From Candidatus Bathyarchaeota archaeon (GTDB taxonomy: Archaea > Thermoproteota > Bathyarchaeia > Bathyarchaeales > Bathycorpusculaceae), in contig CAWEPZ010000011.1 of the NCBI GenBank assembly GCA_963811105.1, forward strand, positions 1,344,001-1,408,000: DNA of 64,000 nt, read 5' to 3'. This document shows, one piece after another, positions 53,169 to 59,766 of the stretch; within the stretch, counting starts at the first letter, position 1, and the number at the start of each line of letters is the position of its first letter. The notes under the pieces are model-generated. The model did no database searches. It saw nothing but the letters and a program-made list of their open reading frames with translations, and was not told the DNA's origin. The position numbers and the translations under genes were made by a program.

Positions 53169-53768
53169 ATGTACAATGAACTTTATGTCGCATGGAAAAG
53201 GGAAATTGAAGAATCATCGCTCGGAGGGTTACCGCCAGACTTCTACCACAAAATAGCAGATTACTTGCTTCGCATAAACGAAGATAATAAGGCACTTGAT
53301 AAAAAATCTGTCAAAGTAAACCTTCTAGACCGTGAAGCAAAAAACGTTATGCGAATGCTTGAGGAACTGCTTAGAGCAAGATACAAGAAAATAGTTAAAA
53401 CCATCACTCAAAGCCAAAAAGTTCCGTCTGAATTATTAACGGTCGAAGAAGCCAAGATGAGTGAAAGCTTTGTTGCTTTCGCGGATGCTTACCAAAGATT
53501 CACTAAAGAACTTATGGACGGCCAAATTCAAGTTCAAAGTTTAGCCGCCCCCGGGCAGGTTCAGGCAACCCCAATAATCGTTAAGGTGGTAACTGAACCA
53601 GGTCATAAACGAGTTGCTGTAAGATTTGTAAAGGCTATTCCGGCGATAATCGGCGCAGATATGAAGACTTATGGACCGTTTAAGGTTGAGGATTTAGCTT
53701 CTTTGCCTGCTGACAACGCCAAAATGCTTGTTAGACAAGGCTTAGCGGTGCAGGTTGAGGTTTCGTAG
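53169..53768 (+). CDS. GINS subunit Gins51 (Gins15)
   Basis: A-domain (LPPDFY, LLRARYKKI, LTVEE) then B-domain (IIGADMKTYGPF..EDLASLP). Directly follows priS. Confidence 0.85.
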   Translation: MYNELYVAWKREIEESSLGGLPPDFYHKIADYLLRINEDNKALDKKSVKVNLLDREAKNVMRMLEELLRARYKKIVKTITQSQKVPSELLTVEEAKMSESFVAFADAYQRFTKELMDGQIQVQSLAAPGQVQATPIIVKVVTEPGHKRVAVRFVKAIPAIIGADMKTYGPFKVEDLASLPADNAKMLVRQGLAVQVEVS

Positions 53769-54822
53769 GTTCTGTAGAAGCTAATTTTTGTGTTTTGAAT
53801 TTGCGCCATAGTGCGTGGCTTAGCATAATAATCAGCGGGTAAGATACTATCCATGCGATCGAGTAGAGAGGTCCATAATAAAAGTGGAACATTTGAACTT
53901 GGTTTGAAGTCTCACCGAATTGCAGACCGATTGTGAAGATGGTGTCTATTCTCAAGATGTTTATGAAGTAGGTGATGGCTGCGCCAATAGCGAAATATCC
54001 GATTTTTGCTCTCCAAGACATAGGCATTCGCTGCAAAAACAACAATGCAACTGCCATAAAGATTAGAAGGCTTTCAATGCCCGCGCAAGGCCATGCTATT
54101 GCAAACTTTGCGGTGCCCAGTGAGCTTGACACTTGCAAGGTTGGCATTCCGTTCTCTTTCCCAAGCAAAGTTCCATATCCCATTAAGCTCAACGTTTTGG
54201 CAGCCAGCATAGCAGTTGTAGGAACCAAAAGTTGGAAAGGAGTAAATTCACCATAGGGAAAAACATTGTCAATAGTGTATAAAACTCCAATTAGTCCAAC
54301 GAAGAGGGCGGGTAAAGCAAAACCTTTCAAACCCTTTTTCCCAAAATACAAGAAAGCAATTAAGCAAAAGAGAGCTGAGAAAACAATGTATTCGATTGCC
54401 AGCGGCATAGAACCATAAAAGCTGATTCCACTTTGCGCTGCCCAGTTTGCTATAGCACCGTTTAACCCAAAATAATTCTCCGATACTACGTACACTGTAG
54501 GAAGCACTGAGGCTATGGCAACCGCACAGAGGCTGACAGTTTTTTGATTGCTTATTTTTGCCCTGATTGTTTCCCAACTGAGAATAAACTCCAGGGCAAT
54601 TAACCAAATGAAAAATAACTGAAAAGTTCTGCCCTTCCACATCAACTGAAAAGAATCCTGGGCAGTTAAGCTAAGATATGGGTCCCACGGGTTCAGCAAA
54701 TAGAGCAACGCTAATGGAATAACGAAAGCAAACAGCGGCATTAGCTTAACTATTAATTCAAGGTGCCACTTGTTTTTTGGAACAACGTTTAACATGACTG
54801 CTTCATACCCGAGATTAATCAT
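53731..54822 (-). CDS. Archaeosortase/exosortase-family protein
   Basis: Multi-TM protein with catalytic C (IAWPCAGIES), R (INILRI) and H (MFH). Confidence 0.85.
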   Translation of the reverse strand: MINLGYEAVMLNVVPKNKWHLELIVKLMPLFAFVIPLALLYLLNPWDPYLSLTAQDSFQLMWKGRTFQLFFIWLIALEFILSWETIRAKISNQKTVSLCAVAIASVLPTVYVVSENYFGLNGAIANWAAQSGISFYGSMPLAIEYIVFSALFCLIAFLYFGKKGLKGFALPALFVGLIGVLYTIDNVFPYGEFTPFQLLVPTTAMLAAKTLSLMGYGTLLGKENGMPTLQVSSSLGTAKFAIAWPCAGIESLLIFMAVALLFLQRMPMSWRAKIGYFAIGAAITYFINILRIDTIFTIGLQFGETSNQVQMFHFYYGPLYSIAWIVSYPLIIMLSHALWRKFKTQKLASTEPTKPQPAPLSLV

Positions 54823-55000
54823 AATGAACTCGTGCTCAATCTAAAAAAGAATATGCACCAACGCCAACAATTGCCCAAAAAACACCTTGACCAACAATTA
54901 AAACTAAAGAGCCCTACCCCAATTGCCAGAAAACTCATTTTTGTGACGGATAGGTAAAAAAGTATAAGAATGCGGATGTTTCTCTAATGCAAAGCTGGTA

Positions 55001-55285
55001 GTGAATTACGTGAACGTTCCTAAAGAAGTTAAAACTTACTGCCCAAAATGCAAAGCTCATCAAATTCACAGTGTAACCCTCTACAAGCCTGGAAAGCGAA
55101 GAGCCTCAGCTCACGGTGAACGTCACCACGCGAGAGAAAAGTTGGGTTACGGTGGACAAAAATATCCTCTTCAAAGAGAATTCGCTAAAACAACCAAAAA
55201 ACAGACCCTGCGCCTGAAATGCAAAGTTTGCAATTTCATGAGGCACAAGGATGGAATTCGACTAAGAAAATTAGTTATACAGTAA
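55001..55285 (+). CDS. rpl44e: 50S ribosomal protein L44e
   Basis: TYCPKC..H, GYGGQK and KTTKK..LRLKC..C. Confidence 0.95.
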   Translation: MNYVNVPKEVKTYCPKCKAHQIHSVTLYKPGKRRASAHGERHHAREKLGYGGQKYPLQREFAKTTKKQTLRLKCKVCNFMRHKDGIRLRKLVIQ

Positions 55286-55289
55286 ATTA

Positions 55290-55502
55290 ATGGAGAAAAA
55301 AATTATGTCTGAATGGAGTAAACTTATCCCAAAACCAAGCAGCGTTTTCCTCAGAGTTAAGTGTTCAAAATGCGGAAACGAACAATTAGTCTACAGCAAC
55401 GCCGTTAACAAGATAACCTGCAACGTATGCGGAGACATATTGGCTGAGCCATCTGGCGGAAGAGCAAAAATCAAAGGCGAAGTACAAGCAGTTCTTGAAT
55501 AA
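55290..55502 (+). CDS. rps27e: 30S ribosomal protein S27e
   Basis: P.S.FLRVKC.KCGNEQ and C.VCG..LAEPSGG. Confidence 0.95.
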   Translation: MEKKIMSEWSKLIPKPSSVFLRVKCSKCGNEQLVYSNAVNKITCNVCGDILAEPSGGRAKIKGEVQAVLE

Positions 55503-55516
55503 GGGATGACACTAAA

Positions 55517-55657
55517 ATGGCTGAGCGTAAGCCCGAATCTGGCGACATGTCAATCGCCACGGGTTATAGCGCTTACGCGAAACCTGATCAATACTATAAA
55601 CACAATCTATTTTATTTTTCTGACAAAATAATTGGCGCTTTTAGAGGGGGAAAATAA
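55517..55657 (+). pseudogene. eif2a: Internally deleted remnant of translation initiation factor aIF2-alpha (46 codons, in frame)
   Basis: Translates MAERKPESGDMSIATGYSAYAKPDQYYKHNLFYFSDKIIGAFRGGK*, resembling the S1 start (PE.GD..IAT...YGAY..LDEY...GLLH.SE). Occupies the rps27e-[aIF2a]-nop10 slot. Confidence 0.8.
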
Positions 55658-55825
55658 TTGGTTTGGCAATTACGCAAATGCGTAAACTGTGAAAAATATA
55701 CGTTAAACAAAACTAGTTGTCCTTACTGCGGTGGCCCTGTCAGGACTCCGCATCCACCTAAGTTTTCCCCAGATGATAAATATCTAAAGTACCGAATGGC
55801 AATGAAGAGGAGCAATACCGAATGA
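55658..55825 (+). CDS. nop10: H/ACA RNP protein Nop10
   Basis: Not in the ORF track. TTG start, MVWQLRKCVNCEKYTLNKTSCPYCGGPVRTPHPPKFSPDDKYLKYR. Confidence 0.92.
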   Translation: MVWQLRKCVNCEKYTLNKTSCPYCGGPVRTPHPPKFSPDDKYLKYRMAMKRSNTE

Positions 55826-56592
55826 AAGAAACCTACATTAAACAATTTATGGAAATCGAACCAAACAACCCCGTTCTTATTGAAGGTCTTCCAGGTTTAG
55901 GACTTGTAGGTAAAATCGCCCTTCGCTACTTAATTAAACAGTTAAAAGCCAAAAAAGTTGCCTATCTTTACTCTCCTCACTTTCCATACTTTGTATTAGT
56001 TAACAAAAAAGGAAACGTTCGCCTGTTAAGAGGGGCGTTCTACTACTACAAAAACCCAAACGGAAACGACTTGATTCTATTTACTGGTGACAGCCAATCC
56101 CAAACAATCGAAGGACAATACGAAATCGCCGATCAAATACTTGCATTCTCAGAAAAACACAAAGTAAAAACCATTGCGACAATAGGTGGTTATCGCATGG
56201 AACCCAATGAAAAACCCAAAGTTTTCATCGCCGCAACTTCACAAGAAATCCTTGACAAAGCAATACAAGCTGGCGCAACTCTTAGCACCTCAGGAAGCCC
56301 CATTGTTGGAACAGCAGGACTAATACTTGGACTAGCAAAATTCAAAAAAATAAACGCTCTGTGTCTGCTGGGAGAAACACGCGGTTATCTGCCTGATCCT
56401 CTTGCTGCAAAAAGCGTGCTGGAAGTTTTAAAGTCAACCTTCAACTTTGACTTGGACCTCACAGGATTGAATGAGGAGATAGCTCGAGCGGAAACAATGG
56501 TAACTAAGCTGCAGCAAATTGAAGAAAAACGAGCAGTACAAGCAGAAGAAACACGAAAAGAAGAGGATAAAAAAACTACTTACATATCCTAA
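55822..56592 (+). CDS. Proteasome assembly chaperone PAC2-family protein
   Basis: EGLPGLGLVGKIA, GDSQ, TIGGY, LLGET.GY..DP.AA, plus conserved context. Confidence 0.9.
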   Translation: MKETYIKQFMEIEPNNPVLIEGLPGLGLVGKIALRYLIKQLKAKKVAYLYSPHFPYFVLVNKKGNVRLLRGAFYYYKNPNGNDLILFTGDSQSQTIEGQYEIADQILAFSEKHKVKTIATIGGYRMEPNEKPKVFIAATSQEILDKAIQAGATLSTSGSPIVGTAGLILGLAKFKKINALCLLGETRGYLPDPLAAKSVLEVLKSTFNFDLDLTGLNEEIARAETMVTKLQQIEEKRAVQAEETRKEEDKKTTYIS

Positions 56593-57176: not shown

Positions 57177-59210
57177 TTAGGTTTTCTTTAGGCATCCTTC
57201 TCTGGGTTCGTAAATTGTGCCTTCACGTAGCAATTGGCTTATCATACGTTCAACTTCAGCTCTAGGAATCTTTGCTTTGGTTTCCAACTCGTTGACAAGA
57301 GCATCTTTCTCCACTATGCCAGTCACTTTCTCCATATTCATCAGCGTTGATAGCACAATTGACAGTCTGTCTCGCAGAGTTTTGGGTCTTCCAGTCATGA
57401 TTAAGTCAATATCAACCTTATAATTCGACAAGTCAATTCCCACCTCTTCCAACGACCGCTTCATTATAGCTATGGCTGCACCTGCATCTTCACCTGTAAC
57501 CTCCTTGCGCAAAGCCACACGCGCTCGAGCTTCCGATATGCGAACCAGAGATTCAAGTTGGCGGGCTGTTATTGCAACCGGTGAGCCTTCAGTTTCGCTT
57601 GCCGAACGCATGGCTAAATAGAAATCGCTTAGAGCCTTTAATGCTTCATTGCCAAGCACCGGTTTAATGCCTTTAGCATAGCTAACGTATTTCCGCAGTA
57701 GCTCTGCATCTACCTGCGCTTCTATGGGGCTTGATCCCCTACGATGGATTTCCAAGATATGCTGAGTCATCTTATAATCTGCATCTTTGTTGGGTACATC
57801 TCGCAGGACGAAGATTAGGTCAAAACGGGAAAGGATAGTAACTGGTAATGGGACGTTTTCGGCGACGGTTCTGTTTGGTTCATATCTACCTAAGGTTGGG
57901 TTGGCTGCTGCAAGCACCGCAGTTCTAGCGTTCAGAGTGGCGACAATTCCACCTTTTGCGACCGAGACTGTGTGCTGCTCCATAGCTTCGTGAATGGCGA
58001 CTCGGTCCTCCGGTCGCATCTTGTCCATTTCGTCAATGCATGCGATTCCTTTGTCCGCCAGCACGAGTGCGCCTGCTTCAAGGCTCATGCTTCCACCTTT
58101 CTCTCTTACCACTGCAGCAGTTAAGCCTGCAGCGGTTGTTCCTCTACCCGAAGTATAGAGTCCTCTTGGAGCAATTCGTGCAACGTACTGAAGCAGTTGT
58201 GATTTGGCTGTACCAGGATCACCAATTAGTAAGGCATTCATTTCTCCTCTGACGTTTACGTCTGGGAGGCTTTTTGAGACTCCGCCGAAGAGCAGGTACA
58301 TTATTGCTTCCTTAATGTGTTCATAGCCAAAGATTGAGGGTGCAATAGAACTCATGATTTTTTTGTGTACCCATGGGTCTTGTGAGAGGGCATGAATTTT
58401 TGCTTCCTCTTCAGGCGTAGCCGGCGACGTTTCTGGTTCTTTGCCTAACACCTCTACAGAGTTAGCATCTAGTTGCAGAATGAATGTTCGGAGTTTTCCC
58501 ATACCCATCAGGGAAGGCGCAAAAGCTCGAACGATTCCAACTATGCTTATATGGTCGCCGGGTCTAGCGACATCAACTATATCGTCACCGACAAGTTTCA
58601 CGGCTAATGTTCGCGGTAATTGCCCTGGCGGTAAATCCTCAGGTTTTTCCTGTAGGCGAAGATCCTGAGAATCTATAAAACTGGATTCTTCTTGAGCGAA
58701 CTCAAATGGTCCGTCTCTGCCACAGTCAGGGGCTTGGCAAATGGCTGGCGCTTTTAGGAATTGCCCGGTTTGTTCGACCATGTTCATAGTTCCACATCGT
58801 TTGCATTTGAATGCTCCCTGCAAAACCATTGGGCGGACTGGTGTGGCTCTAACTATTATGCCTTCAACCATGATAAGCTTAGCCATTTGTTTTGAGCCTA
58901 ATTTTCTAAGCTGCTCTTTCCCCAGAAGCTGCACGATTCTGACGTTGATTTTTTCTATTTTTTCTGCGTATTCAGCGTCTTCAATTCGGAGTTGTTCGTA
59001 AGCTCCTTTTCCTGCATGCTGCAGGTATTCTTCTGGTTTGTTTAATAGTAACTCGGCAAGTTCTTGGTCAAAACCATAAAGCTCTTCAAAATCTATTACT
59101 ATCGAGTTCTTTCCTGAGATGGCTAACTGCGCGATTCTCTGACGATATTTTTCTTTCTTAAAGAACTCTTGAAAAAGTTGCTGCGGATCAACAGTTACTT
59201 CACTAGCCAT
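57177..59210 (-). CDS. mcm: MCM replicative helicase
   Basis: Zn finger, PPGQLPR, GDPGTAKSQ, CIDEMDKM, LSRFDL, ITARQLESL and C-terminal wH. Likely start is ATG 59210. No intein. Confidence 0.97.
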   Translation of the reverse strand: MASEVTVDPQQLFQEFFKKEKYRQRIAQLAISGKNSIVIDFEELYGFDQELAELLLNKPEEYLQHAGKGAYEQLRIEDAEYAEKIEKINVRIVQLLGKEQLRKLGSKQMAKLIMVEGIIVRATPVRPMVLQGAFKCKRCGTMNMVEQTGQFLKAPAICQAPDCGRDGPFEFAQEESSFIDSQDLRLQEKPEDLPPGQLPRTLAVKLVGDDIVDVARPGDHISIVGIVRAFAPSLMGMGKLRTFILQLDANSVEVLGKEPETSPATPEEEAKIHALSQDPWVHKKIMSSIAPSIFGYEHIKEAIMYLLFGGVSKSLPDVNVRGEMNALLIGDPGTAKSQLLQYVARIAPRGLYTSGRGTTAAGLTAAVVREKGGSMSLEAGALVLADKGIACIDEMDKMRPEDRVAIHEAMEQHTVSVAKGGIVATLNARTAVLAAANPTLGRYEPNRTVAENVPLPVTILSRFDLIFVLRDVPNKDADYKMTQHILEIHRRGSSPIEAQVDAELLRKYVSYAKGIKPVLGNEALKALSDFYLAMRSASETEGSPVAITARQLESLVRISEARARVALRKEVTGEDAGAAIAIMKRSLEEVGIDLSNYKVDIDLIMTGRPKTLRDRLSIVLSTLMNMEKVTGIVEKDALVNELETKAKIPRAEVERMISQLLREGTIYEPREGCLKKT

Positions 59211-59211
59211 C

Positions 59212-59766
59212 TTACTTTTCTCCTTCATTTTCTAAAATATTTGTTTTCCATTGAGAGATTAGTTTTACCAGTTGACCGTAGAGAATTTTTTCTTCGTTTG
59301 AGAGTTTTTTTGTGACTTGCTCACTTTGGCTGGGTGCCGTTGAAAGGGAGACTATTTTTTTGAGCCTTGAATTGACAATGTCTTTGGCCAAATGCTTGGT
59401 TTTTTCGTATTCATTTATTCGCTCAGGTTGTCTTGAAATTTCTTCTTTTAAGGTGGCAAGGTAACGTCTAAGTTTAGGATAAAAATCATCCGGTAACTCA
59501 GAAATCTGTCCGGGAATTTGCACGCCCTCTTTCCACTGCACCTTGAAAAGTCTCGTGGCATCCAAAATGTCGTCTTCGCGGAAATGAACCATTCCAGAAC
59601 TCGCGAGCTCTTTTGCAACCCAAAAATAAGCTTCATATTCGTTTCCCTCATCAAAAGGACCGACTGTTAAACCGGAAAGCTTGATTTCTGGGCAGTTTTT
59701 GTTAGCAACAATCTTAACCAGCGAATTCTCGTAAGAGAAATCTAACGTGCTAATTTTGGTTGCCAA
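59212..59766 (-). CDS. GINS subunit Gins23
   Basis: B-A domain order (FWVAKEL...ISELPDDFY...RLKKI...LSNEEKILY), immediately upstream of mcm. Confidence 0.82.
   Translation of the reverse strand: MATKISTLDFSYENSLVKIVANKNCPEIKLSGLTVGPFDEGNEYEAYFWVAKELASSGMVHFREDDILDATRLFKVQWKEGVQIPGQISELPDDFYPKLRRYLATLKEEISRQPERINEYEKTKHLAKDIVNSRLKKIVSLSTAPSQSEQVTKKLSNEEKILYGQLVKLISQWKTNILENEGEK

Follow-up and report, generated by a model that had tools for sequence, protein, structure and literature searches.

The window, a 64,000-nt stretch of a Bathyarchaeia genome (G000), carries rpl44e, rps27e, a short open frame, nop10 and a PAC2-family gene in a single orientation (Table 1). This is the order and orientation of the archaeal LSIN cluster, L44E-S27E-aIF-2alpha-Nop10, in the excerpted text of Berthon et al. 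2008 (PMC2643942), where a PAC2/COG2047-type gene likewise follows nop10 in euryarchaea; GINS and MCM genes are also near in the window. The locus departs from the cluster in that excerpt at the aIF2-alpha slot, which here holds a 46-codon remnant while the working gene lies ~311 kb away. Three of the four LSIN genes are intact and in order, and contiguity fails at this slot. The remnant ends with TAA at 55655-55657 and nop10 starts with TTG at 55658, a spacing of 0 nt that confirms the abutting stop and start of the preliminary description. The ATG of the PAC2-family gene in turn overlaps the nop10 TGA (ATGA). The true start of rps27e may be ATG 55305, which is preceded by GGAG. The operon is flanked by genes for Gins51 (53169-53768), an exosortase-family (EpsH) membrane protein (53731-54822, minus strand) and an MCM helicase (57177-59228, minus strand). 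The Gins51 and MCM flanks are consistent with the published replication–translation supercluster, with an archaeal exosortase homologue sitting between.

Table 1 Features of the rpl44e–PAC2 region, in window coordinates.
Feature	Position	Strand	Basis or remark
rpl44e, first LSIN-cluster gene	55001..55285	+	Pfam Ribosomal_L44, E 4.7e-24
rps27e, stop TAA 55500-55502	55290..55502	+	Pfam Ribosomal_S27e, E 1e-19
Shine-Dalgarno-like GGGATGA	55503..55509	+	ends 8 nt 5′ of the remnant ATG
46-codon remnant ORF of the syntenic aIF2-alpha, ATG to TAA	55517..55657	+	sequence, BLASTP, tblastn, DNA alignment
Homology block, aIF2-alpha codons 1 to about 36	55517..55600	+	alignment to four full-length syntenic genes
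Predicted stem, 5′ arm AGCGTAAGC	55524..55532	+	folding; 8/9 pairs in G000
Predicted stem, 3′ arm GCTTACGCG, from the G-A-Y-A codons of the S1 domain	55571..55579	+	folding, arm survey
AT-rich middle, ~30 bases	55601..55633	+	no consistent alignment to full-length genes
Last ~8 codons and stop of the old gene; contains GAGGGGG	55634..55657	+	3′-end alignment
nop10, TTG start	55658..55825	+	Pfam Nop10p, E 2e-23, profile positions 1-50
PAC2-family gene	55822..56592	+	Pfam PAC2, E 2.2e-45

The last of the three remnant blocks constitutes the nop10 translation initiation region. Because the 16S rRNA 3′ end is GATCACCTCCT, both the motif upstream of the remnant and the motif at the junction are partial Shine-Dalgarno matches, with putative pairing. 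The upstream motif (consensus GAGATGA/GGGATGA, 9-15 nt 5′ of the ATG) has a per-position retention of about 50-80% across the 56 remnants surveyed below. A scan with a bacterial-type promoter and terminator tool, which lacks archaeal promoter coverage, returned counts within shuffle expectation.

The preliminary description had read the 141-nt frame between rps27e and nop10 as an in-frame 46-codon relic of aIF2-alpha, with the start of the S1 domain joined to the last residues of the protein. Its frame, its neighbours and the homology of both termini confirm this. The product aligns with the genome's own intact aIF2-alpha over 44 residues (17 identities, E 6e-7, BLASTP) and with the N-termini of relatives' syntenic aIF2-alpha over 36-46 residues (41-52% identity, tblastn). 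In the DNA alignment with four full-length syntenic genes, the 5′ spacer and about 28 N-terminal codons are recognisable, and the last 27-31 nt show 23-24 identities to the 3′ ends of those genes. Two micro-deletions, both in frame, interrupt the 5′ homology block: one removes 9 nt near 55538/55539 and the other 15 nt near 55557/55558. Their exact positions vary by a few bases with the reference gene. In total the syntenic gene has been shortened by 645 nt, a multiple of three. By sequence homology and by position between rps27e and nop10, the remnant descends from the aIF2-alpha/eIF2-alpha family, from which its first ~28 and last ~8 codons derive. Lacking both domains of the family, it cannot act as a subunit; a Pfam search with its 46-aa product gives no hit at E <= 1, be it to S1 (PF00575), to EIF_2_alpha (PF07541, which takes in the gamma-binding C-terminal domain) or to any other family. 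An open frame by itself is weak evidence, because the remnant interior (102 nt) is also free of stops in 10% of nucleotide shuffles; its standing beyond chance comes from the homology and from the comparative series described below.

The same architecture is found in the closest relative, G087, an independent assembly with an identical 141-nt frame and 7 substitutions. The preliminary description had proposed looking at the locus in sister genomes; a remnant is present in G087 and 55 other genomes of the genus, as well as in G143, a member of another genus. The two micro-deletions, shared with G087, are unlike the product of a collapse and uphold the earlier argument for several deletions over one assembly event. 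Contigs from public runs, labelled as soil, peat, wetland and sediment metagenomes, agree with both halves of the remnant: those of one run cover 55460-55608 (1 difference) and 55640-55847 (6 differences). No single contig among the short assembled contigs of these runs spans 55608-55640, which is the one point in favour of an assembly artefact or of a true loss of aIF2-alpha from the organism. Given the shared architecture, and an intact paralogue on the same contig, we regard either as next to impossible. Two metatranscriptome contigs come from relatives (4 and 6 differences), and a DNA origin is possible for them. A further contig, from public metagenome run X1, departs from the window sequence at position 55533; it has the remnant's first 17 nt and then runs straight to the junction motif. 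Its layout is like that of the 59-nt remnants in G052 and G062, and it too would be in frame (about 14 codons).

A PF07541 search of the whole assembly returns one gene, G000:C11:1087313-1088098, which shares a contig with the remnant and lies ~311 kb away from it. It encodes an open 262-aa protein with S1 (E 4.4e-12) and EIF_2_alpha (E 9.6e-25) matches, both above the Pfam curated cut-offs, and is a full family member by domains and length. The genes for aIF2-beta and aIF2-gamma, whose status the preliminary description had raised, are each found once. An archaeon without aIF2-alpha is excluded by the intact paralogue. The earlier alternative of a second copy or a lineage loss is resolved in favour of the second copy, and the case is one of relocation or replacement, which is how the preliminary description had said an intact paralogue elsewhere should be read. 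That the remnant is what is left of a gene replaced by this paralogue is, in our judgement, hardly in doubt. In every respect that could be checked, the preliminary description of the locus is correct.

We located aIF2-alpha, nop10 and rps27e and computed the rps27e–nop10 spacer in 101 genomes of the same soil/peat Bathyarchaeia genus, drawn evenly from a larger group. The spacer has full-gene size (795-812 nt) in 45 of them and remnant size (59-300 nt) in the other 56, so that the LSIN cluster known from the excerpt of PMC2643942 is broken in 56/101 genomes of one genus. The full-size class comprises 18 genomes with a full syntenic gene and no second copy found, 26 with a full syntenic gene and a second copy, and one (G068) with a second copy beside a full-length syntenic pseudogene bearing 7 stops. 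Among the remnant genomes, 46 have an intact second copy, four have a second copy with 1-nt insertions or a contig split, and six, all 52-75% complete, have none that we could find. At completeness of at least 90%, every remnant genome (32/32) has the second copy. Among 75 genomes from elsewhere in the order, 71 give one aIF2-alpha hit, 4 give none and not one gives two.

The pseudogene of G068 (L064, G068:C1:665500-669300) is 801 nt long, and its 7 stops or frameshifts all fall in the first half; an open stretch of ~135 codons begins at an internal ATG and reaches the nop10 junction. This pseudogene stands near the beginning of the decay series. G143, of the same family and another genus, has only an aIF2-alpha of the second-copy type, and a 159-nt remnant at the syntenic locus. 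There (L183 1645-1825), CTG stands at the usual nop10 start position and the old stop is missing; a TAG in the frame of nop10, 12 nt upstream, closes the remnant frame. The CTG and the missing stop may reflect a sequencing error or an unusual start.

In a quick tree of 71 proteins, from which rows with internal stops and the MAG duplicates L084-L115 were omitted, the second copies form one clade (SH-aLRT 99, stem 0.22). A more careful tree of 84 proteins, including nine same-family outgroups, recovers this clade at 100/100. Its nearest neighbours there, with weak support (85/77, 95/54), are syntenic genes from two other genera, and the genus's own syntenic copies form a separate clade (97/86). 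A single clade for all copies of the genus is not rejected by the AU test (p 0.208). These trees indicate that the second copy arose within the family, by duplication or by intra-family transfer. Three genomes that are 95-98% complete (G020, G086 and G099) have the syntenic copy only and fall among two-copy relatives in the syntenic-gene tree, which suggests that the second copy has been lost there.

Loss of the syntenic copy appears to have recurred. On a tree of the flanking genes (1,467 aligned bases, 72 genus loci, quick search, 20/69 inner branches unresolved), at least 9 changes separate full from remnant or pseudogene states. The window genome and G087 form a pair with support 100, and share their two micro-deletions with no other genome. 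As this pair falls outside two well-supported clades that mix remnant and full-length species (G109 with 7 remnants; G003/G071/G042/G098 with 9 remnants), its loss is independent of at least those two. As a general evolutionary pattern, duplication can be followed by reciprocal loss. In this genus some lineages keep both copies, some have lost the syntenic one and at least three retain only the syntenic one; the differences from the general pattern are a strong bias against the syntenic copy and an outcome short of clean deletion, namely a remnant that is constrained and looks translated.

We then read each of the 56 remnants from its ancestral start. In 43 the ATG is kept and the stop lies -2 to +1 nt from the nop10 start, and in two more the frame is kept with ATA in place of ATG. 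Seven stop at a TAG 12-13 nt upstream of the nop10 start, one stops 5 nt upstream and three read 28 nt into nop10. The start codon is kept in 51/56 remnants and the stop falls at the junction (-2 to +1 nt) in 45/56; one of the off-junction states is common to G004, G019 and G046. Grouping by length and status gives 30 classes, 21 of them in frame (binomial P = 4.4e-5, with one third as the expectation under unconstrained indels, a value made optimistic by relatedness). The in-frame classes hold up to 11 species; all but one of the nine out-of-frame classes consist of a single genome, which usually adjoins an in-frame sister. The G004 group passes from an out-of-frame state to the in-frame derivatives G106, G084 and G016. 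Conservation is concentrated at both ends: the first 16 nt of the remnant and the motif TTTTAGAAGGGA at -19 to -9 before nop10 are each 80-99% conserved across the 56 remnants. The nop10 start is TTG in 49/56 of these loci. None of the 56 genomes has a spacer below 59 nt.

Substitution rates, calculated on equal-length pairs only, with 66 rps27e codons and 50 nop10 codons as flanks, differ with remnant length. Between the window genome and G087 the remnant shows 0.050 differences per site against 0.069 at flanking silent sites, and in the 120-nt class 0.159 against 0.226. The corresponding values are 0.086 and 0.457 in the 72-nt class and 0.021 and 0.426 in the 63-nt pair. Long remnants and the remnant interior drift at close to the flanking silent rate, and in the shortest remnants conservation exceeds that of flanking silent sites about 5- to 20-fold. 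This comparison indicates that erosion strips a neutral interior until constrained ends remain.

The remnant could be a young pseudogene fragment heading for loss, in frame by chance or descent and of no use to nop10. The near-silent drift of long remnants fits such neutral decay, as do the continuous range of remnant lengths from 300 down to 59 nt, the stop-free shuffles of the window genome's interior and the tolerance of 7 stops in G068. It does not predict the excess of in-frame length classes, the start codon retained in most remnants, a spacer that never shrinks below 59 nt, the strong conservation of the shortest remnants or the return to frame in the G004 group. We consider it improbable.

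A functional micro-protein derived from the S1-domain N-terminus would account for the open frame, the start codon and the Shine-Dalgarno-like motif, and pN/pS is below 1 in most groups (0.3-0.7, against 0.01-0.23 in the flanks). Because of these pN/pS values, and because the products (14 to 94 aa) have only their ~5 first and ~5 last residues in common, a conserved peptide function is unlikely. In the 72-nt class, silent sites in the nominal frame hardly vary (pS 0.006) and replacement sites do, so that replacement changes far exceed silent ones. No Pfam family is matched, and to our knowledge an S1 fold cannot form from about 28 residues. The micro-protein is accordingly the reading to which we give very little credence, and the peptide itself is probably without function.

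The near-invariance of silent sites in the 72-nt class is better suited to a third reading, in which an RNA or DNA signal is conserved and translation is irrelevant. Two candidates are the nop10 ribosome-binding region, whose junction motif is conserved at the nucleotide level across families, and a stem-loop 3′ of rps27e that would stabilise or attenuate the transcript. In the syntenic genes of the genus, pairing is possible between codons 3-6 (AGCGUAAGC) and the G-A-Y-A codons (GCUUACGCU), and the 201-nt region of the window genome has a predicted fold z-score of -2.3. Most of the 60 loci that carry both arms (16 full-size, 44 remnant) have 7-9/9 pairs in this stem. G020, G104, G107 and the G010/G108/G111 group carry changes that preserve the structure. 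The 59-63 nt remnants have no stem, however, and 12/56 remnants have no recognisable 3′ arm. The stem is absent from the second copies. In other genera and families the arms pair at only 1-6/9 same-register positions (the anchor failed in about half of these rows), and single-sequence folds of outgroups are inconsistent. We treat the predicted stem as genus-specific and as only moderately supported; it may help to keep the first ~30 codons in place. An Rfam scan of 54900-56000 at E <= 1 gave no match. Signals alone would predict neither the in-frame bias nor the kept ATG and Shine-Dalgarno-like motif, and we judge it quite unlikely that they explain the series, whether the signal is the ribosome-binding region or the stem-loop.

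We favour paralogue replacement followed by deletional decay that is constrained by coupling to nop10, which on the comparative evidence is the probable explanation overall. The 141-nt frame would be the remains of the ancestral aIF2-alpha of the L44E-S27E-aIF2alpha-Nop10 operon. A second aIF2-alpha copy would have arisen in the genus and made the syntenic copy dispensable, and in the lineage of the window genome internal deletions would have whittled the latter down. With its weak TTG directly after the old stop, nop10 would depend on ribosomes that terminate on the upstream frame, either by termination-reinitiation or by upstream translation that holds the initiation region open. The deletions that persist would be those that spare the Shine-Dalgarno-like motif, the start codon, the frame, and the stop with the nop10 initiation region, because nop10 appears to need ribosomes from the upstream frame. 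On this reading the remnant would be translated, and nop10 translation would depend on it.

The observed pattern is the one that termination-reinitiation predicts: the start is kept, the frame is kept, the stop is at the junction and the next start is a weak TTG. The co-oriented remnant and nop10 show the stop–start proximity of termination-reinitiation pairs. In 9 loci read from other families within the order, the stop of aIF2-alpha overlaps or adjoins the start of nop10, usually as TAATG, a 1-nt overlap where the remnant has none, and the junction motif at nop10 is kept there too. The stop/start junction is older than the genus.

Published measurements offer a scale for this arrangement. 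In the excerpted text of Huber et al. 2019 (PMC6728339), termination-reinitiation coupling is strict in 13/14 overlapping gene pairs of H. volcanii and E. coli. According to the corresponding excerpt of Huber et al. 2023 (PMC10666635), the last 15 nt of the upstream gene suffice for coupling and a distance of ~20 nt almost abolishes it; the 12-13 nt class of our remnants lies within the range of gene-specific partial coupling reported in that excerpt. As in the pairs of those two excerpts (PMC6728339, PMC10666635), the frames here are co-oriented with the stop directly at the start, and a partial Shine-Dalgarno motif lies inside the upstream frame. The pairs described there typically overlap by 4 or 1 nt. 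The upstream partner here is a decayed remnant and no working gene; coupling was measured in those pairs and is deduced here from comparative data.

Several observations argue against strict coupling. G068, with its 7 stops, indicates that a fully open frame from the ancestral start is not strictly required, and 11/56 remnants terminate off the nop10 junction. The GAGG in the initiation region of the window genome could permit some de novo initiation of nop10, and the conserved 5′ part of the remnant also belongs to the predicted RNA stem, which offers a possible explanation free of translation. Protection of the mRNA, or an initiation region kept unfolded by upstream translation, may be involved as equally compatible variants. 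On balance we find it somewhat probable that the remnant serves to couple nop10. The earlier suggestion that the mini-ORF was kept for this purpose receives comparative support from the frame bias and the conserved ends, which stops short of a demonstration.

If coupling does constrain decay, a dying redundant gene in a tightly coupled operon could not vanish and would become a minimal leader that delivers ribosomes, a generalisation to which we give an even chance. On this view the natural deletion series of 56 genomes would converge on a floor of about 45-60 nt that comprises a Shine-Dalgarno-like motif and a start codon, followed by a few codons and the stop/start junction. That reinitiation after such a leader would make Nop10 and PAC2 synthesis sensitive to aIF2 availability is a long shot.

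Paralogue replacement with a constrained remnant is a variant of known phenomena that supplies a natural deletion series on archaeal coupling. Among literature listings and abstracts we found no report of aIF2-alpha paralogues in Bathyarchaeia or of coupling leaders derived from gene remnants, and a term search in a 2025 review (PMC12548453) returned none of 'pseudogene', 'remnant' or 'relic'. A core initiation-factor subunit has gained a second gene copy in a large soil/peat Bathyarchaeia genus. The redundancy has been resolved either way, in most cases at the expense of the copy that belongs to one of the best-conserved gene clusters of Archaea. With lengths of 59-300 nt, the remnants provide a mutational series that is already at hand, points to nop10 coupling and marks the parts of a dead gene which selection would still protect. 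If this reading holds, they provide comparative evidence from nature for obligatory termination-reinitiation in an uncultured archaeal class, and a general rule for the short conserved ORFs that precede some archaeal genes. Annotation pipelines will overlook such mini-ORFs or call aIF2-alpha absent from the LSIN cluster, and marker-gene or synteny inference in this group should expect two aIF2-alpha paralogues.

Single-base insertions occur in the second copies of L167 (G087), L168 (G114) and L169 (G085), and each creates AAAGCTC. The insertion is at the same gene position in G085 and G114, two unrelated species, and these changes are probably systematic assembly or base-calling errors. Because they look systematic, some of the 1-nt frame differences among remnants are possibly artefacts as well; removing them would mostly delete out-of-frame cases. 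The insertions call for caution with every 1-nt indel in these MAGs.

The second copy is followed immediately by a 112-aa ORF that matches no Pfam family (L032 1147-1485, minus strand) and is kept in 28/46 second-copy loci. It may be a co-transcribed partner; the synteny of the second copy gave no functional lead for it. In G040 (L180), from another family of the order, the LSIN cluster is broken differently: rpl44e, rps27e and aIF2-alpha remain together, and nop10 (G040:C1:73662-73814) is located ~11 kb away on the opposite strand.
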